From Fibrobacterota bacterium (GTDB lineage: Bacteria; Fibrobacterota; Fibrobacteria; UBA11236): a stretch of 64,000 nucleotides of DNA. Shown in pieces: positions 1,589 to 27,707 of this stretch. How positions within the stretch are numbered: the stretch's first letter is position 1; each line of letters starts with the position of its first letter. A program made the position numbers and the translations under genes. The stretch covers positions 1 to 64,000 of the forward strand of contig JAYUVP010000058.1 in NCBI GenBank assembly GCA_043753995.1, given 5' to 3'. Below the pieces are notes generated by a model, which did no database searches, had not been told where the DNA came from, and saw nothing but the letters and a program-made list of their open reading frames with translations.

Positions 1589-2944
1589 ATGCAGCTTTTT
1601 CAAGCCCATATTTTTTTAATCGTAATGCTCGTGGTTTCTGGCCCAGTCCAAGCCATGAAGGCCGCAGGCGGATTCCATTTTTTCGACGCACTCGATACGG
1701 CCAAGGTTCCGAAGCGGCTTTCCGAATCCGGGCTCTTCGCAGATATTCGAACCAAACAGCCGAATGATGGCGTGATTCCTTTTACAATCAATACCGCATT
1801 GTGGAGTGACGGAGCCGCCAAGATCCGATATATCATCCTGCCATCGGATTCGCAGGTCACTTATCGCAAGGATTCCTCTTATAGTTTTCCCATCGGTACC
1901 GTGTTCGCGAAAAATTTCCTGATCGATACCATTCCCGGAAACGCAAATTCCCGGATTTACCTGGAAACACGCTTACTCGTCCGTATACCTGATGGGCAGC
2001 CGGAAGCCTACTGGTATGGCTTCTCCTATCGCTGGGCCCGGGATCAGAGCGATGCCTTTTTAGTCGATCCGCAGACGGGGCTGGATACCGTGGTGCCCCT
2101 GGCCGCCACGACTGGAGGGTCGCCACGGGAAATGCGCTGGACCTACCCTTCCCGCGAGGCCTGCTGGCGTTGCCACCTGCAACGCGGTCGGCACATTCTC
2201 GGTTTCGCCACGGCGGAGCTGAACCTGCCTGCTTCGACCGGAATGGGAAACCAACTGGAAACCTTGGCGAACCTGGGAGTCTTTCGTGATAAGCCCGATC
2301 TCGTAGGCGCGCATCGGTGGAGTTCCCTGTCCGACACTTCCGCTTCCCTGGAGGCGCGGGCGCGTTCCTACCTGGCAGCCAATTGCTCCTTCTGTCATGG
2401 AACGGAGGGGGTCGGGGGCGGCGCGGGGGCGACCCAAAACTTTGATTATTTCCGCGCTGACTTCCCAATCAATTACCTCAACCGTGACGCCAAATTCGAA
2501 TGGGGGATACCGGGTGCACTTTTCGTTTACGGAGGGGATCCGGACCGATCCATCCTGCTTTATCGGATGGGAAACCGGGCCGATAAGCGGACGCAAATGC
2601 CGCCATTGGCCACCGTCCTCCCCGATAGCGCGGCCCTGAGTGTGGTCGCCGGCTGGATCCGTACTTTGCCTGCCCCCTCCGTGGCTATCCGGCAACAAGC
2701 CGGGCCTTTCCGGACCCATTTGCCGCACATACTCGCAGGGGAATTGGTGCTGCCCGTGTATGTCACTTTGGGAATTGCGCCTAGCCTTTTTTCGCCGCGA
2801 GGCCAGCGCTTCGATTTGAAGGCGGTGGGGCCAGGTCGCTATCGATTGCCAACCCTGGACGGACCAGGAATCTATTTGTTGCGGGCGGGCAGCGAAGTTT
2901 TCCGCATCGTCTGGACTGCAGAGCCTTATTCGTACTTGAGATAG
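1589..2944 (+). CDS. Exported diheme c-type cytochrome (SO2930/HNE_0200-like) with T9SS-like C-terminal domain
   Basis: Signal peptide; PKRLSESGLF, LWSDGAAKIR, FPIGTVFAKNF, LETRLL; two CxxCH motifs (CWRCH, CSFCH); QMPP; tail with LFSPRG...GIYLLR. Confidence 0.8.
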   Translation: MQLFQAHIFLIVMLVVSGPVQAMKAAGGFHFFDALDTAKVPKRLSESGLFADIRTKQPNDGVIPFTINTALWSDGAAKIRYIILPSDSQVTYRKDSSYSFPIGTVFAKNFLIDTIPGNANSRIYLETRLLVRIPDGQPEAYWYGFSYRWARDQSDAFLVDPQTGLDTVVPLAATTGGSPREMRWTYPSREACWRCHLQRGRHILGFATAELNLPASTGMGNQLETLANLGVFRDKPDLVGAHRWSSLSDTSASLEARARSYLAANCSFCHGTEGVGGGAGATQNFDYFRADFPINYLNRDAKFEWGIPGALFVYGGDPDRSILLYRMGNRADKRTQMPPLATVLPDSAALSVVAGWIRTLPAPSVAIRQQAGPFRTHLPHILAGELVLPVYVTLGIAPSLFSPRGQRFDLKAVGPGRYRLPTLDGPGIYLLRAGSEVFRIVWTAEPYSYLR

Positions 2945-4101
2945 CCGAAGACGGATTTATAGTCCAATCCTTTGGCGACTAAAGCTCCCCATTCCGGGCG
3001 GTCATCGCCGACTGTTGCGCGAATCGCGAAATGCTTTAGACCCACACTGGCCTTGGGGAATTTCACCGAGACCACCGGCATATCCACCGGTCGACCGTCA
3101 TTGTCCAGAGTGATCAAATCCTCCCAATCGGATTCCGGTGCATCTAAATGGGTATAGAACCACTGGTAGAAAAGTTGCTCCTTATAGGTTTCTCCGGCGG
3201 GGGATCGATAGGGTTGTTCTGCATCGCGGGTGGCCGCAATCATGAAATAGGAATGCCCGGGCACCACCTTGAGAGTGTCATAGTGGATGGCGATCGGGTT
3301 GCTCTCCGATAAGGTGGAGAAAAAGATCGTATCGGCTTTGTAACTCCCGATCTTACTGAAGTGGTTGATGCCAGCGGCATGCACATCAATGAAGCCAATG
3401 GAGTCGATGACCGGGTTGCGATTCACATTGGATAGGTAGGAGCCGCTCTCAAGCCGGTTGCTATACCGCACCGTCAGATTCTTAGTCACATCTAACTTGA
3501 ATCCCGGAGAACTCACCTTGGCCTTGACCTGCACTAATGCGACGAGGCCGTCCACTAGGGGAGAAAGCTTGTTCGATATCGTGTTCACGGAGTCGAGGGC
3601 TCCGATCAGGTCTAACTTTTTCAAGCCATTCTCGAAGGAAGTCATGCCTAGTTTTCTCAGTTCTTCCTTTTCTTCATCGGTGATATCGGACTCGATTTTC
3701 AGAACCTCTGGCGACAAATCGGTAAGCTCCAAGGGGTTTTTGCTGCCCTTGGGAATGACGACAGAAAATGCCAGGCCATCCGTCGAAGGATTTAGCTTCC
3801 CGTCGCCCGTTTCTAAATCGATGATTTCCGTGACCGTTGGGAAGCCGGAACTGGTGGCGCCCTGGTTCACCTGGTATTTGAGGCCGAGTTCCCAATCCAC
3901 TTCATACTTCTTTTCGGCATCGTATAGCTTCAGCTCTACCCTGACGGTATCCCCTGGCGCCGCTTCCGGAGGGTCGATGACGATGGCGAAGGGCCGAATC
4001 TTATTTCCTTCAATCACGTTTTCATAAACTTCTGGGAATTCGGCGCATCGTGAGAGCGCCAAGGCCACAAATAGCAGAATCAACTGGGTTGGTTTTTTCA
4101 T
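2926..4101 (-). CDS. Hypothetical lipoprotein, last gene of the TonB operon
   Basis: MKK + hydrophobic stretch + LSRC lipobox-like site; PPEAAPGDTV; 16 nt downstream of the TBDT. Confidence 0.7.
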   Translation of the reverse strand: MKKPTQLILLFVALALSRCAEFPEVYENVIEGNKIRPFAIVIDPPEAAPGDTVRVELKLYDAEKKYEVDWELGLKYQVNQGATSSGFPTVTEIIDLETGDGKLNPSTDGLAFSVVIPKGSKNPLELTDLSPEVLKIESDITDEEKEELRKLGMTSFENGLKKLDLIGALDSVNTISNKLSPLVDGLVALVQVKAKVSSPGFKLDVTKNLTVRYSNRLESGSYLSNVNRNPVIDSIGFIDVHAAGINHFSKIGSYKADTIFFSTLSESNPIAIHYDTLKVVPGHSYFMIAATRDAEQPYRSPAGETYKEQLFYQWFYTHLDAPESDWEDLITLDNDGRPVDMPVVSVKFPKASVGLKHFAIRATVGDDRPEWGALVAKGLDYKSVFGYLKYE

Positions 4102-4117
4102 GTTTCGATTCTCCAGG

Positions 4118-6811
4118 TTAAAATTCCGCCGTCAGGCCTAAGGACGGGAAGAAGATCGCTCCCACGGGCTTTCGCGAGCTATTGTCATAGCTGTAGTCGT
4201 AGATCTCGGGGCTATTGTAAAAGAAATAGTTGGCATTGCTGATATCGAGATAGGTGGAGAGTATCCAGTTTCGATACACGAATCGCTTATCCACACGAAG
4301 GTCCAATTGCAGGAATGGCCCCACCCGATCTGAGAAGGGCTCGCCCAGCTCGGGCACATATTCCCGGATCTCGCTATCGTAGAGAAATTCGTTATGGGTC
4401 ATAGAACGCAAAGGCGAGGCGGGACTGCCGGTGATGTATTGAAAACGGAAACCCGCCTCCCAACCTCGTGGCAGTCGCCAGCCGCCCACCACTTGCAGGT
4501 TATGGGTCTGATCGTTTTTCCATAGCACCCATTTATCCTTGTCCCAGCTCTCATTGGCAGCATAGAGGTCAGGGGCAAATGGGGCACCGGCTCGCCTTTC
4601 CGATCGTGAGAGGGAATAACTGATCCAGCCGAAAAAGCGCTTACCCTGGTCCTGACGCAGCATTATTTCCAGGCCATACATGCGGGCATCCATGTCCGCG
4701 ACATAGTTCATGTCCTTGCCTGTCACCGGATCCAGGCTGTCGGTGGCATTGGGAATATTCTTCTGGGTATTGAAATAGCCCTGAACATCCAAGGAAAGCA
4801 AATCAGAAATTTGCCACTCCTGACCGAGGGTGTATTGCACGGCTTCGGTAGGAGGCAAGTCCGGATTTCCGAGTCCCTCGGCTGTGACTCCAATGAAACG
4901 AGGGGCCTGGGTATAGGTCCCGGCGGATCCCTTGGCTGTCAGGCCCTGCAAGTATTCGAATCGGGTGGCCATGCGAAAGCTGGGCACGCCCTCCTCCACT
5001 TCGGGGTAATATTCGTAACGAATGCCTGGAAGTATAAGCCACTTCTCGATGGGGTGGATTTCCACATTGGCATAGGTCCCAAGCGTGCCGACATCCAGGA
5101 CAGCATCTTCGGCAACCACGCCTTTCTGGCTTAGGAAGCCATAGTCGAAATCAAAGCTTTCGAAGCTAAGGTCCACGCCTGGCTTGAAGGTGAGATACGG
5201 GTTGGCGTGATAGCGGCCCTCGTCCCGGAAACTGAAGCCCTTGGAATTCTGACCGTATTTGGCGGCGCCGAAAAAGGAAGCCTCGGTTCCTGACTGCACC
5301 AAGCTCAACCGGATCTCATTGCTGAAAGACGATCCGATTTTGGAATTGAGGCCCAATAGGGCCATATGAAACCAATCTTCGGACATGCCTTTCGAAGTAT
5401 TGCCGGACAAATCCCCGCTTCCGCCGCGAGCATCGGCAGAAATGATTTCCAAATCGTCACGGGAGAAGCTATAGGTCAGGAAACCTTGGTTTTGCTTATT
5501 GATATTCCAATCCAGCCTGGCATAGGCATCACGGTATAAAGGTGCCACCGTGGTGGCTTGGCCCTGGGTCGCCGACTTAATGACATCTCCGATATAGCTG
5601 TAAGTGCCGGAGACTTGTAAGGCCAGGTTTTCCGAAAGCGGGCCCTCCACGCGACCGCCGGCATCCATCAGGTTGATATCCACCTTTCCATGCCATCGAT
5701 CTTTTAAGGCGGGACGTCCCTTCACTTCTACCACGCCGCCGACGGCGCCGCCATAGCGGGTACTGAAGCCCCCGGGATACATGTCGATGGAGGAGAGGAG
5801 GTCGGAGTTGTAGAGAGATCGGATGGCGCCGAAATGGAAGAGTCGGATCACTGGAACTCCGTCCAGCAGGAAGCGCGAGTCTTCCGGACCTGCTCCACGA
5901 ATCAAGATTTCTCCGCTGATGAAAGGCGGCCGAGCCACGCCCGGAAGCGCCCTCACCACCTTGATGGCATCGCCGCCGAAGCCGGGCACCTTTTTGACTT
6001 CCGCTGCGGAAAGGCTGGTCTTGGCCACTTCCTCTCGCTCCGCTTTGCCATGCACTACGATTTCATATTCATCATAGGTATCACGGCGGATACGGTAGTC
6101 CATCTCGACAAGCTTACCGGGGAGCACGATCTCTCGGAAGGAAGCGAGTTGAAATCCGGTCACGGGAAAGCTCACCTGGATGGAACAAGCAGGCAGGGAT
6201 TTGAATGAGAAATAGCCTTGAGCATCGGTGGTGGTGACGAGCCTACCGTCTTCCAGGTTTTGGCCGGGGAGAGATCCCAATCTCACCAGGTATTGGCTGA
6301 AGGGCATATTGAGACTTTTATCCAGGATCGTGTCCAGAATTTCCACCACCACCATGGCCTCCGCAATGGGAGCGCGAGTACCTTTTTCCCGCAACCGTCC
6401 TTTGAAATTGACTTGGGCCTCCAACGGGACATCCACGCTGTCGAGCTTGAAGGCGTAGGTGTATTCGATAGCGACCGGAACCGCTTGACCATTCGCAGAA
6501 GCAGGTGAGAATTCGAATTGGCGAATGGCATGCAAGGCCGCCGAATCAAGATCAGGACGTATGCCCGCCATCACTCTGGCGGAATCCACCAGGCCATTCT
6601 GGTTGATAGACACTTCCAACTTGACCATTCCCTGAGCGCCCGCTTTGAAGGCCTCTTCGGGATAAGCAGCCTGGATGAATTTCTTCACCGCAGGCATGCT
6701 ATCCGCCGGAGCTGGGGCGGTCGAGATTATTTCTTCCGCTTGGATATTTCCCGCAGCCATAAAAATCGCGGCCATCAAAGGGAATAGAAGGAGGGGATGC
6801 ACTTGTCTCAT
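4118..6811 (-). CDS. TonB-dependent receptor with N-terminal TonB_C domain and carboxypeptidase-regulatory-like domain
   Basis: N-terminal YPEEA...GMVKLEVSINQNG...LDSAALHAIRQFEFSPA...G.AVPV (TonB_C); plug VRALPGV, ILIRG, LDGVP, YPGGFSTRYGGAVGGVV; C-terminal Phe (GLTAEF). Confidence 0.9.
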   Translation of the reverse strand: MRQVHPLLLFPLMAAIFMAAGNIQAEEIISTAPAPADSMPAVKKFIQAAYPEEAFKAGAQGMVKLEVSINQNGLVDSARVMAGIRPDLDSAALHAIRQFEFSPASANGQAVPVAIEYTYAFKLDSVDVPLEAQVNFKGRLREKGTRAPIAEAMVVVEILDTILDKSLNMPFSQYLVRLGSLPGQNLEDGRLVTTTDAQGYFSFKSLPACSIQVSFPVTGFQLASFREIVLPGKLVEMDYRIRRDTYDEYEIVVHGKAEREEVAKTSLSAAEVKKVPGFGGDAIKVVRALPGVARPPFISGEILIRGAGPEDSRFLLDGVPVIRLFHFGAIRSLYNSDLLSSIDMYPGGFSTRYGGAVGGVVEVKGRPALKDRWHGKVDINLMDAGGRVEGPLSENLALQVSGTYSYIGDVIKSATQGQATTVAPLYRDAYARLDWNINKQNQGFLTYSFSRDDLEIISADARGGSGDLSGNTSKGMSEDWFHMALLGLNSKIGSSFSNEIRLSLVQSGTEASFFGAAKYGQNSKGFSFRDEGRYHANPYLTFKPGVDLSFESFDFDYGFLSQKGVVAEDAVLDVGTLGTYANVEIHPIEKWLILPGIRYEYYPEVEEGVPSFRMATRFEYLQGLTAKGSAGTYTQAPRFIGVTAEGLGNPDLPPTEAVQYTLGQEWQISDLLSLDVQGYFNTQKNIPNATDSLDPVTGKDMNYVADMDARMYGLEIMLRQDQGKRFFGWISYSLSRSERRAGAPFAPDLYAANESWDKDKWVLWKNDQTHNLQVVGGWRLPRGWEAGFRFQYITGSPASPLRSMTHNEFLYDSEIREYVPELGEPFSDRVGPFLQLDLRVDKRFVYRNWILSTYLDISNANYFFYNSPEIYDYSYDNSSRKPVGAIFFPSLGLTAEF

Positions 6812-22797: not shown

Positions 22798-24006
22798 ATG
22801 ACTCCTTGGAAAGCTCGCTATTTCACCATCTGGTCTGGACAAGCGCTTTCCTTGGTTGGAAGTCAGGTGGTCCAATTCGCCATCATTTGGTGGCTCGCCA
22901 AGGGATCGAATTCGGCGACGGTATTGACCCTCGCTAGCCTCGCGGCTATGGTGCCTGCCATAGCCTTGGGTCCCCTGATTGGGGCCTTGGTAGATCGCTG
23001 GAATCGGCGTATCCTCATGATTGCCGCGGATGTTTGCACTGCCCTGCTGACCTTGGGGCTATTCCTTCTCTTCGCCTCGGATCGCGTGGAGAATTGGCAT
23101 ATCTATGCGGTGTTATTCGTTCGGTCGATAGCCGGAGTTTTTCACTCCGTTTCCATGCAGTCCTCCACCTCCCTTCTCGTTCCGAAGGAACAGCTCGTGC
23201 GAGTCGCGGGTTTGCGTCAAACCTTGGATGCAGGAATGAGCATAGGCGCGCCTTTTCTCGGGGCCTTGCTTGTGAGCCTCCTTCCGATGGAAGGCATTAT
23301 CCTGATCGATACCGTGACCTGCATCATTGCTGTGCTTCCACTCCTCTTCATCCCCATTCCCAAGCATCGTGAGGATGGCGAATCTGTTCCGCCTATTTGG
23401 AAAAGCATGAAAGAGGGTTTGTCCTTTATCAGGGGTTGGCGAGGGTTGGCCACACTCTGCGGCTTGGCTGCCGTGCTGAATCTTTTCGTTGGATCCATTT
23501 CCTCCCTTCTCCCGATCATGGTGACGCGGCACTACGGTTCCGAAGTGGGAACTTTGGCCACCTTCGAGTCGCTATTCTGCGTCGGAATGGTGGTCGGAGG
23601 TTTGGCGATGTCGGTCTGGGGCGGCTTCAAGAAGAGAATATTCACCATGCTGGTTGGCATCATGGGTCTCGGCTTCGCCATCATCGCTTTCGGATTCTCT
23701 CCCGGTCAGCCCTTTTTCCTGGCCTGCATTTTTGTTGGACTTGCCGGCTTCATGGTGGTTTTCTTGAATACGCCGATCGCGGCCCTACTCCAGGGGGTCA
23801 TTCCTCCGGAAAAGCAAGGTCGGGTATTTGCCACTCTTGGTAGCCTAAGTGCAGCATCCGTGCCAGTGGGGTTGGCCGTTACCGGTCCATTGTCCGACGT
23901 CTTCGATGTCTCGCATGTCTACATCGTCATCGGTCTTGTCTGTGCCATTCTAGGCGGGGCCGCCTTCGGTCTCCGGGGGCTGACAACTCTGGAGCAGCAA
24001 CGGTAG
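22798..24006 (+). CDS. MFS transporter, macrolide-efflux (MefA/DHA3-like) family
   Basis: IWSGQALSLVGSQVVQFAIIWW, GALVDRWNRR, IPPEKQGRVF; 12 predicted TM segments. Confidence 0.88.
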   Translation: MTPWKARYFTIWSGQALSLVGSQVVQFAIIWWLAKGSNSATVLTLASLAAMVPAIALGPLIGALVDRWNRRILMIAADVCTALLTLGLFLLFASDRVENWHIYAVLFVRSIAGVFHSVSMQSSTSLLVPKEQLVRVAGLRQTLDAGMSIGAPFLGALLVSLLPMEGIILIDTVTCIIAVLPLLFIPIPKHREDGESVPPIWKSMKEGLSFIRGWRGLATLCGLAAVLNLFVGSISSLLPIMVTRHYGSEVGTLATFESLFCVGMVVGGLAMSVWGGFKKRIFTMLVGIMGLGFAIIAFGFSPGQPFFLACIFVGLAGFMVVFLNTPIAALLQGVIPPEKQGRVFATLGSLSAASVPVGLAVTGPLSDVFDVSHVYIVIGLVCAILGGAAFGLRGLTTLEQQR

Positions 24007-24020
24007 ACGCCTATAGACCT

Positions 24021-24926
24021 CTACCATCGGCTCGCTTTGGAGGTCGCTTCTCTGCTCGGCAATCTTACCGCACTACCCACATAGCTCAACGCCAGCGAAC
24101 GTGTGAATTGAAAGCGGAAGCCGCGCGGCACATTTCCCGTCGCCAAGAGCCGCCAAAAGGCGGAGCTGAATTCCGGGCGCATTCCCCTCATCCCTTCGAC
24201 GCGCAAGCCCGCGCCGGTGCAAAGGTTTGATAGCTCCCGGGGCTTGAGGAAGAGAGGCAAGACATGCATATGTCTCGGCACATTCTTCACAAACCATTCC
24301 ACCCCTTTGATGATGATCAGCCAGGCAAACACATTGCGGTTGAAGGTATGGAATAAGAATAGGCCTCCTGGCCGCAACACGCGTGCCGCTTCTGCTATGG
24401 CCCGCCCAGGCGAAGTCACATGTTCCAGAAAATCCAGTGCGCATACCGCGTCGAAGGAGGCGTTTGGAAAGGGCAGGCTATAGGCATCGCCGGCTAGATA
24501 CGCGGGCGCAATAGAAGGCGATGTGTCAGAAGAAGGGTGAGGTGATTGGGTAAAGGGTGGTGTCTGCCCGTCCCCAGCCTGCGCAGCGCGCAAGCTTCCC
24601 AGCGATGCGTCTAGGCCAGCCACTCGATGGCCCAAGGCTGCGAGATGTCGGGCCAGCAAGCCGCCGCCGCAACCGATATCGAGCACACGGGCAGAGCCCG
24701 GACCCAATGCTTCGCGAATCCGGTCTGCCACCCATGGATCTTTCAAAGCCCCTTCGGCGCGGAGCAAGGCCACGGGATGGTCACTGCCTTCATGCCAACG
24801 CATACCCAGGTTATCGTAAAAGGCATTGTCGAGAATCGCACGATCGTCTACCGCAGTCGGATGTGTAGGCACGCCATCCGTAACTGGAAGGTTACCCTGG
24901 ATGGGCAAGGATGGTTTCCACTTCAT
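24021..24926 (-). CDS. UbiG-like SAM-dependent O-methyltransferase
   Basis: RVLDIGCGGGLL, FDAVCALDFLEHV, LRPGGLFLFHTFNRN, VPRHMH..PLFLKP; ATG 24926 overlaps the upstream stop (ATGA). Confidence 0.85.
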   Translation of the reverse strand: MKWKPSLPIQGNLPVTDGVPTHPTAVDDRAILDNAFYDNLGMRWHEGSDHPVALLRAEGALKDPWVADRIREALGPGSARVLDIGCGGGLLARHLAALGHRVAGLDASLGSLRAAQAGDGQTPPFTQSPHPSSDTSPSIAPAYLAGDAYSLPFPNASFDAVCALDFLEHVTSPGRAIAEAARVLRPGGLFLFHTFNRNVFAWLIIIKGVEWFVKNVPRHMHVLPLFLKPRELSNLCTGAGLRVEGMRGMRPEFSSAFWRLLATGNVPRGFRFQFTRSLALSYVGSAVRLPSREATSKASRW

Positions 24927-25381
24927 TCCTTCACCGCTACTTTGGCCCATGGGCCATTCCAGTAAGCCATTTGCCAGAGCCCGAAAGCGACCATCGCCCC
25001 CGTTTGCATTGCTAAGAATGCTCCAAATCCGGAGGGCCGGGTGCTAAAGGCCCAAAGGCCCGCGATCGCCAGGATAACGGGATGCAGTAGGAAAAGACAG
25101 GCATGCAACCAGCTCTCCGTACCGGAGCATAATTTCGCATGCACCCATTCGTCCTTGGTGACACAGAGGCAAGAGAATACCGAGGCCGTGGCATAGCCAG
25201 TCAGGCCGGCGGGTGTCGGTGGAATGAGGAGCGACATTCCGATGCAGGCTGCCGCCACCATGGTATCGACAGGATGCCCCCAGCGTTCCCAGGCGGGAAG
25301 CCCGCGCTGGCGATGAAAGCCCTCGTCAACAATCATGAGAGCCCCTTGCAGTGCGAAGGGTAATGCGGCCCAGGCCCACAT
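24923..25381 (-). CDS. Small membrane protein with twice-repeated DExxH-x7/8-ExWxH motif
   Basis: VDEGFHRQRGLPAWERWGHP and KDEWVHAKLCSGTESWLHAC among hydrophobic helices; tightly coupled to both neighbours. Confidence 0.75.
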   Translation of the reverse strand: MWAWAALPFALQGALMIVDEGFHRQRGLPAWERWGHPVDTMVAAACIGMSLLIPPTPAGLTGYATASVFSCLCVTKDEWVHAKLCSGTESWLHACLFLLHPVILAIAGLWAFSTRPSGFGAFLAMQTGAMVAFGLWQMAYWNGPWAKVAVKE

Positions 25382-25384
25382 GGC

Positions 25385-26623
25385 TCAAGCCTTGCGCAGC
25401 ATGGCGCCATACAAGGTCAATCCGGGACCGAAGGCTAGGCTGGTGATCAAGGCGCCGGAGGGAACATGGACATCGGATAGCATTCCAGCCCAAACATGGG
25501 GCAAGGTGGCGGAAGACATATTCCCGCAGGCTTTGAGTACGGCGCGGCTATGGGCCACTTGATTGGGCCGCAGTTCTAAAAGGCTCGCCACCTTGTCGAT
25601 AATGCGCGGGCCTCCGGGATGCACGGCAAAAAGACCGCGCTGCATGGCCTCGCGGGGATCGGTGCCCGTTTGCGCGTATAGGTTATCCAGGAAATCGCCC
25701 AAGGCGCCGGCAATAAGATCAGGGACATCGCGTGACAAACCGATACGCATGCCATGATCGCCCAGACACCATGCGATGGCGGGTCCGGTATCAGGCAGGA
25801 TTTCTTCGTGAACGCCTAGAAAATGGAAACCGCTTTCTATTCCATCGGCATTTCCGTCCGCCGCGCGGATGCTATAGCGTATATGCCCATCGGCGAAGAG
25901 GCTTTGGGCAACCAGTTGTTCGGGCTTATGTTCGCCGACATTCAAATGCACGGAACAGAACTCGGTATGCACGATGTCGACGCGCCCTCCGCTAGCCGCC
26001 TTATCGTTATGCACGCGCGGCGAGGCCATGAAGGCGGTGGCCATGCGGAGCGCTGGCATGGATGCATAACATCCCATATGGTAGGCATGAAGGACACCCG
26101 TGCGGCCTCGCCAGCCGCGTTTCGCGACGAGAAGCTGCGGGGCGCTGGGGGCGACATACCCGGTGCATGAGACATGGATCAATTCCTGAGGTGGCTCCTG
26201 CGAGACCCAGGTGTCGGGGATGTCATCGGCGACTTCGGCGCGCAGGGTGGGTAACGCCCCCGGTACTGGATAGAAGGCATTGAAGGCGCGCTCGGCAACC
26301 TCCTGGAACGCCTCCATGCGCACCGTCATTCCCGCGCCGTTGGGGTCGCTCTCCACATTGAACACGCGCATCTCGCTCCAATCAGGTTGGACGAAATCGT
26401 CCATTTCGAATCCGCGCGAAGACAGGTTTTCGGAATTGCAACCGTAGCGAGTGACCAGGCGTTCCATGCGAGTTCGGAAGCCGCCTTCATCGAATTCTCC
26501 TTCGGTACGCGCGGCCTCGGCATGAGCATGGGCCGTGGCCAGCCACTGAACCGCCTCCTCATGGCTCCCAACATGCCTGGGCCTTAGAATGCGGAAATCT
26601 CCGATAATGCAATCGATAGTCAT
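25385..26623 (-). CDS. Type III polyketide synthase (chalcone/stilbene synthase family)
   Basis: HVSCTG, HMGCYA (Cys), LFADG, VHPGG (His), GNMSS (Asn), AFGPGLT. Confidence 0.92.
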   Translation of the reverse strand: MTIDCIIGDFRILRPRHVGSHEEAVQWLATAHAHAEAARTEGEFDEGGFRTRMERLVTRYGCNSENLSSRGFEMDDFVQPDWSEMRVFNVESDPNGAGMTVRMEAFQEVAERAFNAFYPVPGALPTLRAEVADDIPDTWVSQEPPQELIHVSCTGYVAPSAPQLLVAKRGWRGRTGVLHAYHMGCYASMPALRMATAFMASPRVHNDKAASGGRVDIVHTEFCSVHLNVGEHKPEQLVAQSLFADGHIRYSIRAADGNADGIESGFHFLGVHEEILPDTGPAIAWCLGDHGMRIGLSRDVPDLIAGALGDFLDNLYAQTGTDPREAMQRGLFAVHPGGPRIIDKVASLLELRPNQVAHSRAVLKACGNMSSATLPHVWAGMLSDVHVPSGALITSLAFGPGLTLYGAMLRKA

Positions 26624-26768: not shown

Positions 26769-27707
26769 TTACCGGCTAAGCCTCACGGTTTCTCTCCGCT
26801 CGCCTCGGCCACTATTCCAGAGGAAGCGCGCCACATAGTTGCCTCGCGGCCAAAGTGAGGCATTGAACTCGATGGGCACGTTGGCATGTCGAGTGCGCGA
26901 GAACAACTTCCCTACGGGATCGAAAAGCTGCGCCTCGACATAGTTGCCTGCAAGAACGGGAGGCAAGAAAACGATAAACTTGTCGCCCAGTCGCCGAACC
27001 AGAGCATCAAAAGCCCCGGATGCCGGATCTTCGAAGAGATCCTTTTTTCGCAATCCCAAAGTGGCCTGCGGTAAGACGATATTGAAATCGCCAACTAAGC
27101 AGCCATCCGCTAGGGTTAAGGGAATGATGCGTGACTTCGCGCTCGGATCGTCCGCCCCATAATCTCCGGGGATATAAGGGTCGCCCTGGAAATACAATTG
27201 GGTCACGAGATCGGTCGGCGGAATACGGCCCGTCGGTGTGCGAATGCGAAGATGAATATGACTAGGTCTATAACTGGAACCATTGAGATAGACGCCGGGC
27301 TTGATAGTCAAAAAAGGCAGATCGCCTTTTTCATCGGAAATAATTCGCCCCCAATGCCGTGACTTTTCTGGATCTCCTCGATCATCGCAGGAGGGCATAC
27401 TGGGGTGGATATAACATCCCTGGGACGTGGCATGCCAAACTTCGGCGACCACGCCCTGCACGGGTCCGGAACAATCGGACGCCTTGGCTCGAATGAATAA
27501 ACTTTGCCCTGGGGCACCTGCGGCCAGGGGCGTCAGGCTATTGCGTCCTGGCGCATTGTCCAAATAATAGGGACCATAGCCATAGCGATCGGGAGACGTA
27601 GGCGTGGGGCAAGTCTCTCCCCGAACGCACCTAGGTAAGGCCAAGGTGCTTAGCGCAGCGGCGCCAAAGCCAAGGAATTCCCTGCGCTGCATTTTTGGTT
27701 TGTTCAT
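26769..27707 (-). CDS. Intradiol ring-cleavage dioxygenase-like protein with Tat signal and T9SS-like C-terminal domain
   Basis: QRREFLG Tat motif; GPYY, EVWHA..QGCY, TIKPGVY, RPSHIH, TQLYF; tail LFDPVG...GNYV. Confidence 0.85.
   Translation of the reverse strand: MNKPKMQRREFLGFGAAALSTLALPRCVRGETCPTPTSPDRYGYGPYYLDNAPGRNSLTPLAAGAPGQSLFIRAKASDCSGPVQGVVAEVWHATSQGCYIHPSMPSCDDRGDPEKSRHWGRIISDEKGDLPFLTIKPGVYLNGSSYRPSHIHLRIRTPTGRIPPTDLVTQLYFQGDPYIPGDYGADDPSAKSRIIPLTLADGCLVGDFNIVLPQATLGLRKKDLFEDPASGAFDALVRRLGDKFIVFLPPVLAGNYVEAQLFDPVGKLFSRTRHANVPIEFNASLWPRGNYVARFLWNSGRGERRETVRLSR

Follow-up and report, generated by a model that had tools for sequence, protein, structure and literature searches.

The question raised by this locus is what a small membrane protein of no named family contributes to an operon whose two other genes can be assigned. 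The locus lies in a 64,000-nucleotide stretch of DNA (the window: positions 1 to 64,000 of contig JAYUVP010000058.1, assembly GCA_043753995.1) from a bacterium of the Fibrobacterota, and comprises genes for a predicted type III polyketide synthase (PKS), a 152-amino-acid membrane protein and a predicted S-adenosylmethionine (SAM)-dependent methyltransferase (MT). The operon appears to be of a known general kind, that of type III PKS phenolic lipid synthesis, and what seems to be new in it is the middle protein, for which X152 is used here as a working label (open reading frame (ORF) 24923..25381, minus strand). The family of X152 is marked by a set of virtually invariant His, Asp and Glu residues, and the protein is tentatively proposed to be a new polytopic metal-dependent ring oxygenase in a phenolic-membrane-lipid operon.

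Sequence and predicted fold of X152

24923..25381, minus strand: X152, 152-aa five-helix membrane protein of a family without a name (ORF; no Pfam or NCBIfam match; AlphaFold2 pLDDT 94.4)
25265..25327, minus strand: X152 motif 1, residues 19-39, D19 E20 x x H23 x x R26 ... W31 E32 x x G35 H36 P37 x D39
25082..25156, minus strand: X152 motif 2, residues 76-100, K76 D77 E78 x x H81 ... C85 ... E89 x W91 x H93 ... L96 F97 x x H100 P101

An earlier note on this DNA, made from the sequence, had drawn attention to two motifs in X152, DEGFH-x8-ERWGH and DEWVH-x7-ESWLH, and both are present in the translation: D19-E20-G21-F22-H23 is followed after eight residues by E32-R33-W34-G35-H36, and D77-E78-W79-V80-H81 after seven by E89-S90-W91-L92-H93. 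At the level of the DNA the reverse complement of 25313-25327 reads GAC GAG GGC TTT CAT, the codons of DEGFH. The protein has five His (23, 36, 81, 93, 100), three Asp (19, 39, 77) and five Glu (20, 32, 78, 89, 152), and the four His of that description, all of which lie in the motifs, are therefore joined by a fifth, H100.

An AlphaFold2 model built from a 39-sequence alignment has a mean predicted local distance difference test score (pLDDT) of 94.4 and a predicted template modelling score (pTM) of 0.87, with helices at residues 2-26, 30-52, 57-75, 77-84, 87-111 and 119-142; hydropathy peaks are consistent with five membrane helices. Motif 1 straddles the turn joining helices 1 and 2, while motif 2 consists of the short helix 77-84 and the beginning of the helix 87-111. 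From these helix limits it follows that each motif spans a helix-turn-helix joint in the model. In a profile-profile alignment of the two halves residues 11-37 pair with 69-94 (local P 0.047, global P 0.93). Judged on sequence, the two-fold motif is real and in register. The internal repeat that the earlier note saw in it holds to that extent; an ancient duplication as its origin is statistically marginal and can be proposed only weakly.

The X152 family and its invariant residues

Relatives of X152 are numerous. A word-seeded search found 156, an exhaustive phmmer search gave 274 representatives at 50% identity, a profile search gave 984 clusters at 90% identity and a scan with one genome per species gave 463 loci. 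Across 347 aligned sequences D19, H23, R26, E32, H36, D39, K76, H81 and E89 are each kept in all 347, E20, D77, E78 and H93 in 346 and H100 in 345, so that every His, every Asp and four of the five Glu of X152, together with R26 and K76, fall within this set. Conservation of the acidic and His residues across homologues, which the earlier note had named as a check on its suggestion, is thus borne out, and it is far beyond chance. Conservation exceeds 90% in the same alignment at W31, G35, P37, S70, C85, W91, L96, F97, P101, Q137 and W141, and smaller alignments also show the acidic and His residues to be invariant.

The earlier note could not place the protein in a named family, and the searches leave it there. 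The listed source names of stand-alone relatives are all 'hypothetical protein' and none of these relatives carries a precomputed Pfam domain. X152 itself has no match in Pfam (E <= 0.1) or NCBIfam, a Pfam scan of 39 alignment members (E <= 1) returned scattered weak matches only, and a profile search against the sequences of the PDB, among them the COQ4 homologue 6E12, returned 0 matches at E <= 10. At the level of structure, Foldseek with the X152 model against the PDB gave none at E <= 0.001, the best (0.65) being a de novo designed helical protein. A wide structural search with VIA-align returned generic helical bundles only, headed by the bacterial bestrophin homologue 4wd7_A with a Z of 10.8 (root-mean-square deviation 3.2 Å over 130 aligned residues), a value inside the range that the tool flags as common among unrelated helical bundles. 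A search of the ESM Atlas gave unnamed clusters, with no usable match among the named ones. No description of the family or of a PKS-X152-MT cassette was found in a literature search of limited coverage. Taken together, these comparisons suggest that X152 belongs to an undescribed family.

Among the weak matches of the 39 alignment members, SH3_4 was found in seven (best E 3.9e-4) and EccD in five, and both are regarded as spurious membrane or low-complexity matches. The SH3_4 match recurs in the membrane domain of the closest relatives, which are of the Fibrobacteria lineage (for example P0010, P0421, P0433 and P0439; best E 3.9e-4 to 4.8e-5), and is probably spurious there also.

Topology and proposed convergence of the two motifs

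The two motif loops carry on average 4.15 and 2.13 Lys plus Arg residues across the family and the C-terminal tail 2.20, against 0.08, 0.34 and 1.05 on the opposite side of the membrane. The C-terminus is found fused to a SAM methyltransferase (see below), from which it follows that the C-terminal side is cytoplasmic. Residue covariation was analysed as mean-field direct couplings in 453 sequences over 130 columns with less than 10% gaps (effective number of sequences 347); without the gap filter, artefacts from gapped loops with many indels outweighed the signal, and those couplings were not used. Among the 40 strongest inter-helix couplings 75% join residues within 6 Å of each other in depth, compared with 33% of all pairs, and this level of agreement was reached by 0 of 20000 random sets. 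Pairs of invariant columns score about 0.98 in the depth test as an artefact and were excluded from the evidence. The couplings P29-L84, Q25-S86, G35-A94 and F22-T88 join motif 1 to motif 2, and R33-N142, R24-Y140 and W34-M138 reach the end of helix 5; the pattern is that of one bundle formed by helices 1-4, with helix 5 packed on helices 1 and 2. Charge distribution of the positive-inside kind, fusions and covariation together place both motifs, by prediction, at the cytoplasmic face of the membrane. Covariation and topology also lend indirect support to the proposal of a single site at that face, made up of both motifs together with H100 and Q137/W141. The invariant polar residues all lie at one membrane face except H100; one conserved His lies two turns deeper.

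This arrangement bears on whether X152 might be a small transporter, flippase or ion or metal channel, serving either the export of a phenolic lipid or the supply of metal or protons. The best fold matches are channel-like helix bundles, with the bestrophin homologue first, and paired acidic/His motifs with two-fold symmetry are known in metal transporters. Against this, the Z score of that match is of the size found between unrelated bundles, the invariant polar residues other than H100 gather at one face and not along a transmembrane path, and neither fusion to an MT nor strict linkage to a PKS would be expected of a transporter. Such a role is considered very improbable.

The operon in the window

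25385..26623, minus strand: first operon gene, 412-aa type III polyketide synthase of the ArsB type, predicted to make alkylresorcinols (Pfam Chal_sti_synt_C 9.2e-21)
24021..24950, minus strand: last operon gene, UbiG-like class I SAM O-methyltransferase (Methyltransf_11 3.1e-23)
24923..24926, minus strand: ATGA overlap of the X152 stop codon and Met9 of the MT (plus-strand 'tcat' at 24923-24926)

The PKS TGA stop lies 3 nt ahead of the X152 ATG (plus-strand 'catggctca' around 25379-25387) and the X152 stop codon overlaps a Met codon of the MT, which is 309 aa long from its first ATG and 301 aa if it starts at that codon, Met9 (24926). PKS, X152 and MT in the window form a translationally coupled operon.

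The nearest solved relatives of the window PKS are ArsC structures, 3VS9 (2.4e-59) and 3VS8 (1.6e-57), the next match being at 1.6e-21. A Cys-His-Asn triad is present, its motifs MGC, HPGG and GNMSS lying at residues 183, 334 and 367. In the accessible part of a review, 3VS8 is ArsC and 3VS9 its G284W mutant, and a Trp at this position (W281 of ArsB) shifts cyclisation from pyrone to resorcinol (PMC6274091). W285 of the window PKS aligns with the Trp of ArsC G284W, and the protein scores 204.6 bits against the mutant and 198.6 against the wild type. This resorcinol-directing Trp has an equivalent in 75/75 cassette PKSs that cover the position. The MT scores 104.9 bits against the NCBIfam UbiG model TIGR01983, whose equivalog cut-off is 102.95, and its best solved relative is UbiG 4KDC (2e-21). 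A prediction of a complex between MT and X152 (score 0.00, mark 0.32) counts neither way.

The cassette across phyla

Cassette counts rest on 80 fetched loci of at least six phyla, from Fibrobacteria, Polyangia and other Myxococcota, Blastocatellia and Chloracidobacterium, Chlamydiota, Verrucomicrobiota, Bdellovibrionota and Oligoflexia. A PKS lies upstream of X152 on the same strand in 77 of them; the exceptions are L028, L076 and L015, whose contig begins 139 nt before X152. An MT lies downstream in 76, and the remaining four loci end within about 530 nt after X152. Genes beyond the cassette vary by lineage. They were sampled twice, as 43 ORFs from 17 loci and as 104 (of 111 listed) from 23 loci, and neither a flavin adenine dinucleotide (FAD)-dependent monooxygenase (FAD_binding_3) nor a P450 was found in these 43 + 104 flanking ORFs, which do contain a single FA_hydroxylase, in L076, and a single flavoprotein of the glutamate synthase type, in L021. 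A tblastn search of the 80 loci with two FAD_binding_3 proteins of the window's own genome gave no match, a weak test with two queries only.

Of 77 relatives of at least 322 residues, 76 carry MT domains and one, P0380 (541 aa), carries PKS domains fused to X152; among 87 long forms there are 86 in which X152 comes first and the MT follows at the C-terminal end. Fourteen long forms were scanned, of which 11 are X152 joined to an MT and one, P0228 (432 aa), is X152 joined to a UbiA prenyltransferase, so that the pathway may also have prenylated variants.

The predominance of MT fusions could suggest that X152 is a non-enzymatic membrane anchor or substrate presenter, which tethers the MT (and perhaps the PKS) and passes it the lipid head group. 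The constant gene order and coupled translation would suit such a role, as would a protein that is small and mostly apolar. A mere passive anchor, however, would need no such invariant set, in which R26, K76, five His and seven acidic positions are each retained by 345-347 of the 347 sequences, from six phyla; these residues, moreover, appear to form one cluster at one membrane face, and the UbiA prenyltransferase found as a fusion partner is already an integral membrane protein for which an anchor would be superfluous. On balance an anchoring role is improbable.

Comparison with known systems

Operons that join a type III PKS, a methyltransferase and an oxidoreductase or hydroxylase have been described in several bacteria. 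The third enzyme is an (FAD) oxidoreductase/hydroxylase in the srs and pkq operons (srsABC of Streptomyces griseus, pkqABC of Mycobacterium smegmatis and Streptomyces sp. MNU77), according to the accessible text of their description (PMC9927152), and the same set is given in the available part of another report for hidABC of cyanobacteria and for 58/96 planctomycete PKS genes, the operon being shared with Planctomycetota (PMC10896814). The products are, in those parts of both sources, methylated (methoxy-) alkylresorcinols or alkylbenzoquinones (PMC9927152, PMC10896814). The operon in the window is alike in having three genes, with an alkylresorcinol-type type III PKS carrying the triad and the resorcinol-directing Trp, a co-transcribed SAM methyltransferase and one further gene. 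It differs in that the third enzyme of srsABC, pkqABC and hidABC is a soluble FAD-dependent oxidoreductase/hydroxylase, whereas here the third gene is X152, which has no flavin or nucleotide motif. It differs also in its order, PKS-X152-MT, and in its UbiG-like MT.

The solved proteins closest to the PKS belong to the ArsB/ArsC pair of the ars operon in Azotobacter vinelandii, and the PKS carries the ArsB-type Trp by which aldol cyclisation to resorcinols is directed. In the ars operon the synthases stand alongside a fatty acid synthase, ArsA, and the accessible part of the description mentions no X152-like gene (PMC6274091); in contrast, no fatty acid synthase neighbours X152 in the loci examined (17 + 23 loci). 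The cepAB operon of Entotheonella, with a PKS and an MT only, and the alkylpyrone cluster of Myxococcia are likewise distinct from PKS-X152-MT.

Among membrane-associated di-iron carboxylate proteins Coq7, alternative oxidase (AOX)/PTOX and AcsF are monotopic interfacial four-helix bundles with the ligand pattern E...ExxH...E...ExxH, and hydroxylation of a lipid-tailed ring by Coq7 is followed by O-methylation by UbiG/Coq3. X152 is like them in having Glu and His on paired helices at a membrane interface and a putative context of ring tailoring followed by a UbiG-like MT. Unlike them it is polytopic, with five transmembrane helices, and has DExxH-x7/8-ExxxH twice together with H100. Its E20xxH23 and E78xxH81 are paired with E32xxxH36 and E89xxxH93, which makes four or five His, and covariation indicates one bundle of helices 1-4. 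No Pfam match to the ferritin-like di-iron families (COQ7, AOX) was found for X152 at E <= 0.1 or for the 39 members at E <= 1, and no ferritin-like chain is among the Foldseek and VIA-align matches listed, although the fold may still be of that kind. The likeness to Coq7 in concept, which the earlier note had raised, fits the genomic context of aromatic-ring tailoring (alkylresorcinol-type PKS, UbiG-like MT, fusions) but finds no counterpart in sequence or fold.

The other comparison made there was with the membrane His-box oxygenases. These enzymes (fatty acid desaturases/hydroxylases, AlkB) have eight or nine His, in boxes of the form HxxxH, HxxHH and HxxHH, and few carboxylates. X152 resembles them in acting, presumably, on a lipid and in having putative ligands at the cytoplasmic ends of transmembrane helices, but with five His only, no HH pair, many carboxylates and no match to FA_desaturase or FA_hydroxylase the likeness to desaturases fails at the level of sequence. 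Nor was there a Pfam match to membrane methyltransferases of the ICMT/PEMT type (of the BpsB kind), for X152 at E <= 0.1 or for the 39 members.

A further comparison is with COQ4, in which an HDxxH-x11-E motif forms a binuclear metal site beside a hydrophobic tunnel and which, in the accessible part of its description, carries out an O2-dependent oxidative C1 decarboxylation of a lipid-tailed ring in coenzyme Q synthesis (bioRxiv 10.1101/2023.11.13.566839). Both proteins have a short His/Asp/Glu motif, which forms the binuclear site of COQ4 and for which a metal site is predicted in X152. COQ4, however, is not polytopic, and its motif differs from those of X152 in spacing and in residue order. 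Neither COQ4 homology nor its motif was found in X152, which has no match to it in Pfam or in the PDB profile search.

A possible function for X152

It is against this background that X152 is tentatively read as a metal-dependent ring oxygenase. The PKS, to judge by its specificity-determining residue, would use malonyl-CoA and a fatty-acyl starter in a condensation that gives a 5-alkylresorcinol or an alkylresorcylic acid. In X152 both (D)ExxH...ExxxH hairpins would come together with H100 and the helix 5 end at the cytoplasmic face and bind there one or two metal ions, most likely as a carboxylate/histidine di-metal centre, and X152 would use O2 to place oxygen on the lipid-anchored ring, either by hydroxylation or by an oxidative decarboxylation like that of COQ4. 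The UbiG-like MT, attached by coupling or by fusion to X152 at its cytoplasmic C-terminus, would then O-methylate the new hydroxyl, as its family assignment and the fusions suggest, to yield a methoxy-alkyl-hydroquinone or benzoquinone like those of the srs/pkq/hid type. To specify the metal centre as di-iron is a weaker proposal still.

Several considerations lead to this reading. The characterised operons add a hydroxylase or oxidoreductase, and here X152 is the sole third component; an invariant cluster at the cytoplasmic interface is what might be expected of a metal site whose substrate is a lipid-anchored head group; COQ4 offers a precedent for a binuclear site built from a short motif and used in O2-dependent ring oxygenation; and the partner MT is of the UbiG type. 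In ubiquinone synthesis UbiG methylates hydroxyls that ring hydroxylases have placed immediately before.

The distribution of X152 among genomes also fits an enzyme that uses O2. The window's own genome (5.2 Mb, 97% complete) has three genes for heme-copper oxidase subunit I and a single X152, and no COQ7 was found in it. Among 151 sampled genomes of the phylum COX1 is present in 31 and X152 in 11, and COX1 accompanies X152 in all 11 while X152 occurs in none of the 120 genomes without COX1. The 11 carriers all belong to one family, being 10 of its 11 other genomes together with the window's own.

A number of points weigh against an oxygenase. All carriers being of one family, the oxygen correlation amounts effectively to one evolutionary event. 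No sequence or fold link joins X152 to a known oxygenase or metalloprotein (Pfam, NCBIfam, PDB, Foldseek, VIA-align, ESM Atlas), and its ligand pattern, ExxH and ExxxH twice with four or five His, differs from the canonical di-iron set of E...ExxH twice; it would equally suit hydrolytic or decarboxylating sites with Zn or Mn. The invariant R26 and K76 hint at an anionic group on the substrate. No cytochrome b5, ferredoxin, rubredoxin or flavin reductase is fused to X152 in the 77 longer forms, and no electron-transfer partner is conserved beside it in the 43 + 104 flanking ORFs. Nor is an oxygenase strictly required, because the products of ArsB-type synthases are already decarboxylated and a resorcinol hydroxyl can be methylated without any hydroxylation. 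Lastly, the fusion in P0380 would place the N-terminus of X152 in the cytoplasm, contrary to the N-out topology. Such a fusion could come from one mutated or misread stop, because the PKS and X152 ORFs of the window are in frame and one stop plus one codon apart; P0380 probably reflects an in-frame stop that was lost or misread, and it was given no weight as evidence on topology.

Alternatively, X152 may be a non-redox enzyme with Zn, Mn or Mg, acting on the PKS product before methylation and without O2, for example as a membrane decarboxylase of alkylresorcylic acid, as a hydrolase of thioesters or esters in release or loading of the lipid, or as a cyclase. The invariant cluster of His, Asp and Glu at the cytoplasmic face would serve it too, R26 and K76 could grip a carboxylate, phosphate or CoA group, and a redox partner, fused or conserved nearby, is lacking. 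Zn or Mn is bound by His, Asp and Glu in the soluble gamma-resorcylate decarboxylases, which counts in its favour. So does COQ4 itself, the binuclear geometry of which is compared by its authors, in the accessible part of their account, to that of binuclear metallohydrolases (bioRxiv 10.1101/2023.11.13.566839). On the other hand, a Trp-type (ArsB-like) synthase is expected to give resorcinols that are already decarboxylated, an MT of the UbiG type suggests a freshly hydroxylated ring, X152 is confined in the phylum sample to genomes with oxygen reductases, and it has no Pfam match to a hydrolase or decarboxylase family. A non-redox enzyme is therefore judged unlikely, though less so than an anchor or a transporter, and some probability is reserved for functions that nobody has listed.

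The metal-dependent ring oxygenase can also be taken further, with greater doubt, as the founding member of a new class of polytopic membrane di-metal oxygenases that replaces the flavin hydroxylase of the known operons. The DExxH...ExxxH hairpins would then provide a carboxylate/His centre at which the alkylresorcinol head group is hydroxylated or oxidatively decarboxylated, and an unrecognised polyketide-derived lipid, perhaps a methoxy-quinone or antioxidant lipid, would be made in six lineages (Chlamydiota, Verrucomicrobiota, Bdellovibrionota, Myxococcota, Acidobacteriota and aerobic Fibrobacteria).

Significance

Phenolic lipids and polyketide quinones have been studied in few bacteria, where they serve, according to the accessible parts of two accounts, as components of cyst and spore membranes, as lipids of antibiotic tolerance and as alternative electron carriers (PMC9927152, PMC7064976). 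The PKS-X152-MT cassette is compact and portable and is found in hundreds of species genomes of several phyla, environmental chlamydiae included. Should X152 prove to be a metal oxygenase, the few folds known among membrane oxygenases would gain another, and the protein would explain how quinone-like lipids could be made without a flavin hydroxylase in the lineages that carry the cassette.

Neighbouring genes and variant loci

A gene at 26769-27707 (minus strand), 145 nt upstream of the PKS and on the same strand, encodes a protein of 312 aa that has a twin-arginine-like signal (RREFLGFGAAAL) and matches the intradiol domain Dioxygenase_C (1.5e-18). No relative of it was found by tblastn in the 80 related loci and it is probably not part of the cassette. 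On the other side a 402-aa MFS_1/MFS_3 transporter (22798-24006, plus strand) is convergent with the MT across a 14-nt gap; it was considered as a conserved exporter of the pathway and set aside, there being one weak relative only (L027) among the related loci. A scan for promoters and terminators gave results below shuffle expectation.

A few of the 80 loci depart from the common plan. X152 and MT stand without an adjoining PKS in L076, of Blastocatellia, and in L028, a metagenome-assembled genome (MAG) labelled 'Actinomycetota', and in these the PKS may be encoded at another site, or X152 and MT may have a different substrate. L076 has a NadR-like/NMN-transporter pair upstream and its FA_hydroxylase-family gene about 400 nt downstream. 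The label of L028, like that of the MAG of L019 ('uncultured Bifidobacterium sp.'), names an odd host given the remaining distribution, and may reflect mis-binning or transfer. In L041, from a genome of the Parachlamydiales, a gene for a 1136-aa protein with a TPS (two-partner-secretion) domain lies between PKS and X152 (2585-5995) and interrupts an operon that is compact elsewhere. A UbiE/MenG neighbour was rejected as part of the system, a true orthologue being present in three loci only.

Of the 80 loci, 16 have a gene for a membrane protein of the TauE/SafE family ahead of the PKS and 23 have a peroxiredoxin (Redoxin/AhpC-TSA) gene after the MT, in both cases in Chlamydiota and Verrucomicrobiota. 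Loci with these genes include L025, L034, L038, L041, L044-L049, L053, L055-L057, L059, L060, L070-L072, L074, L078 and L080, among others, and the TauE protein and the peroxiredoxin may be additions of a redox character to the cassette in particular lineages.

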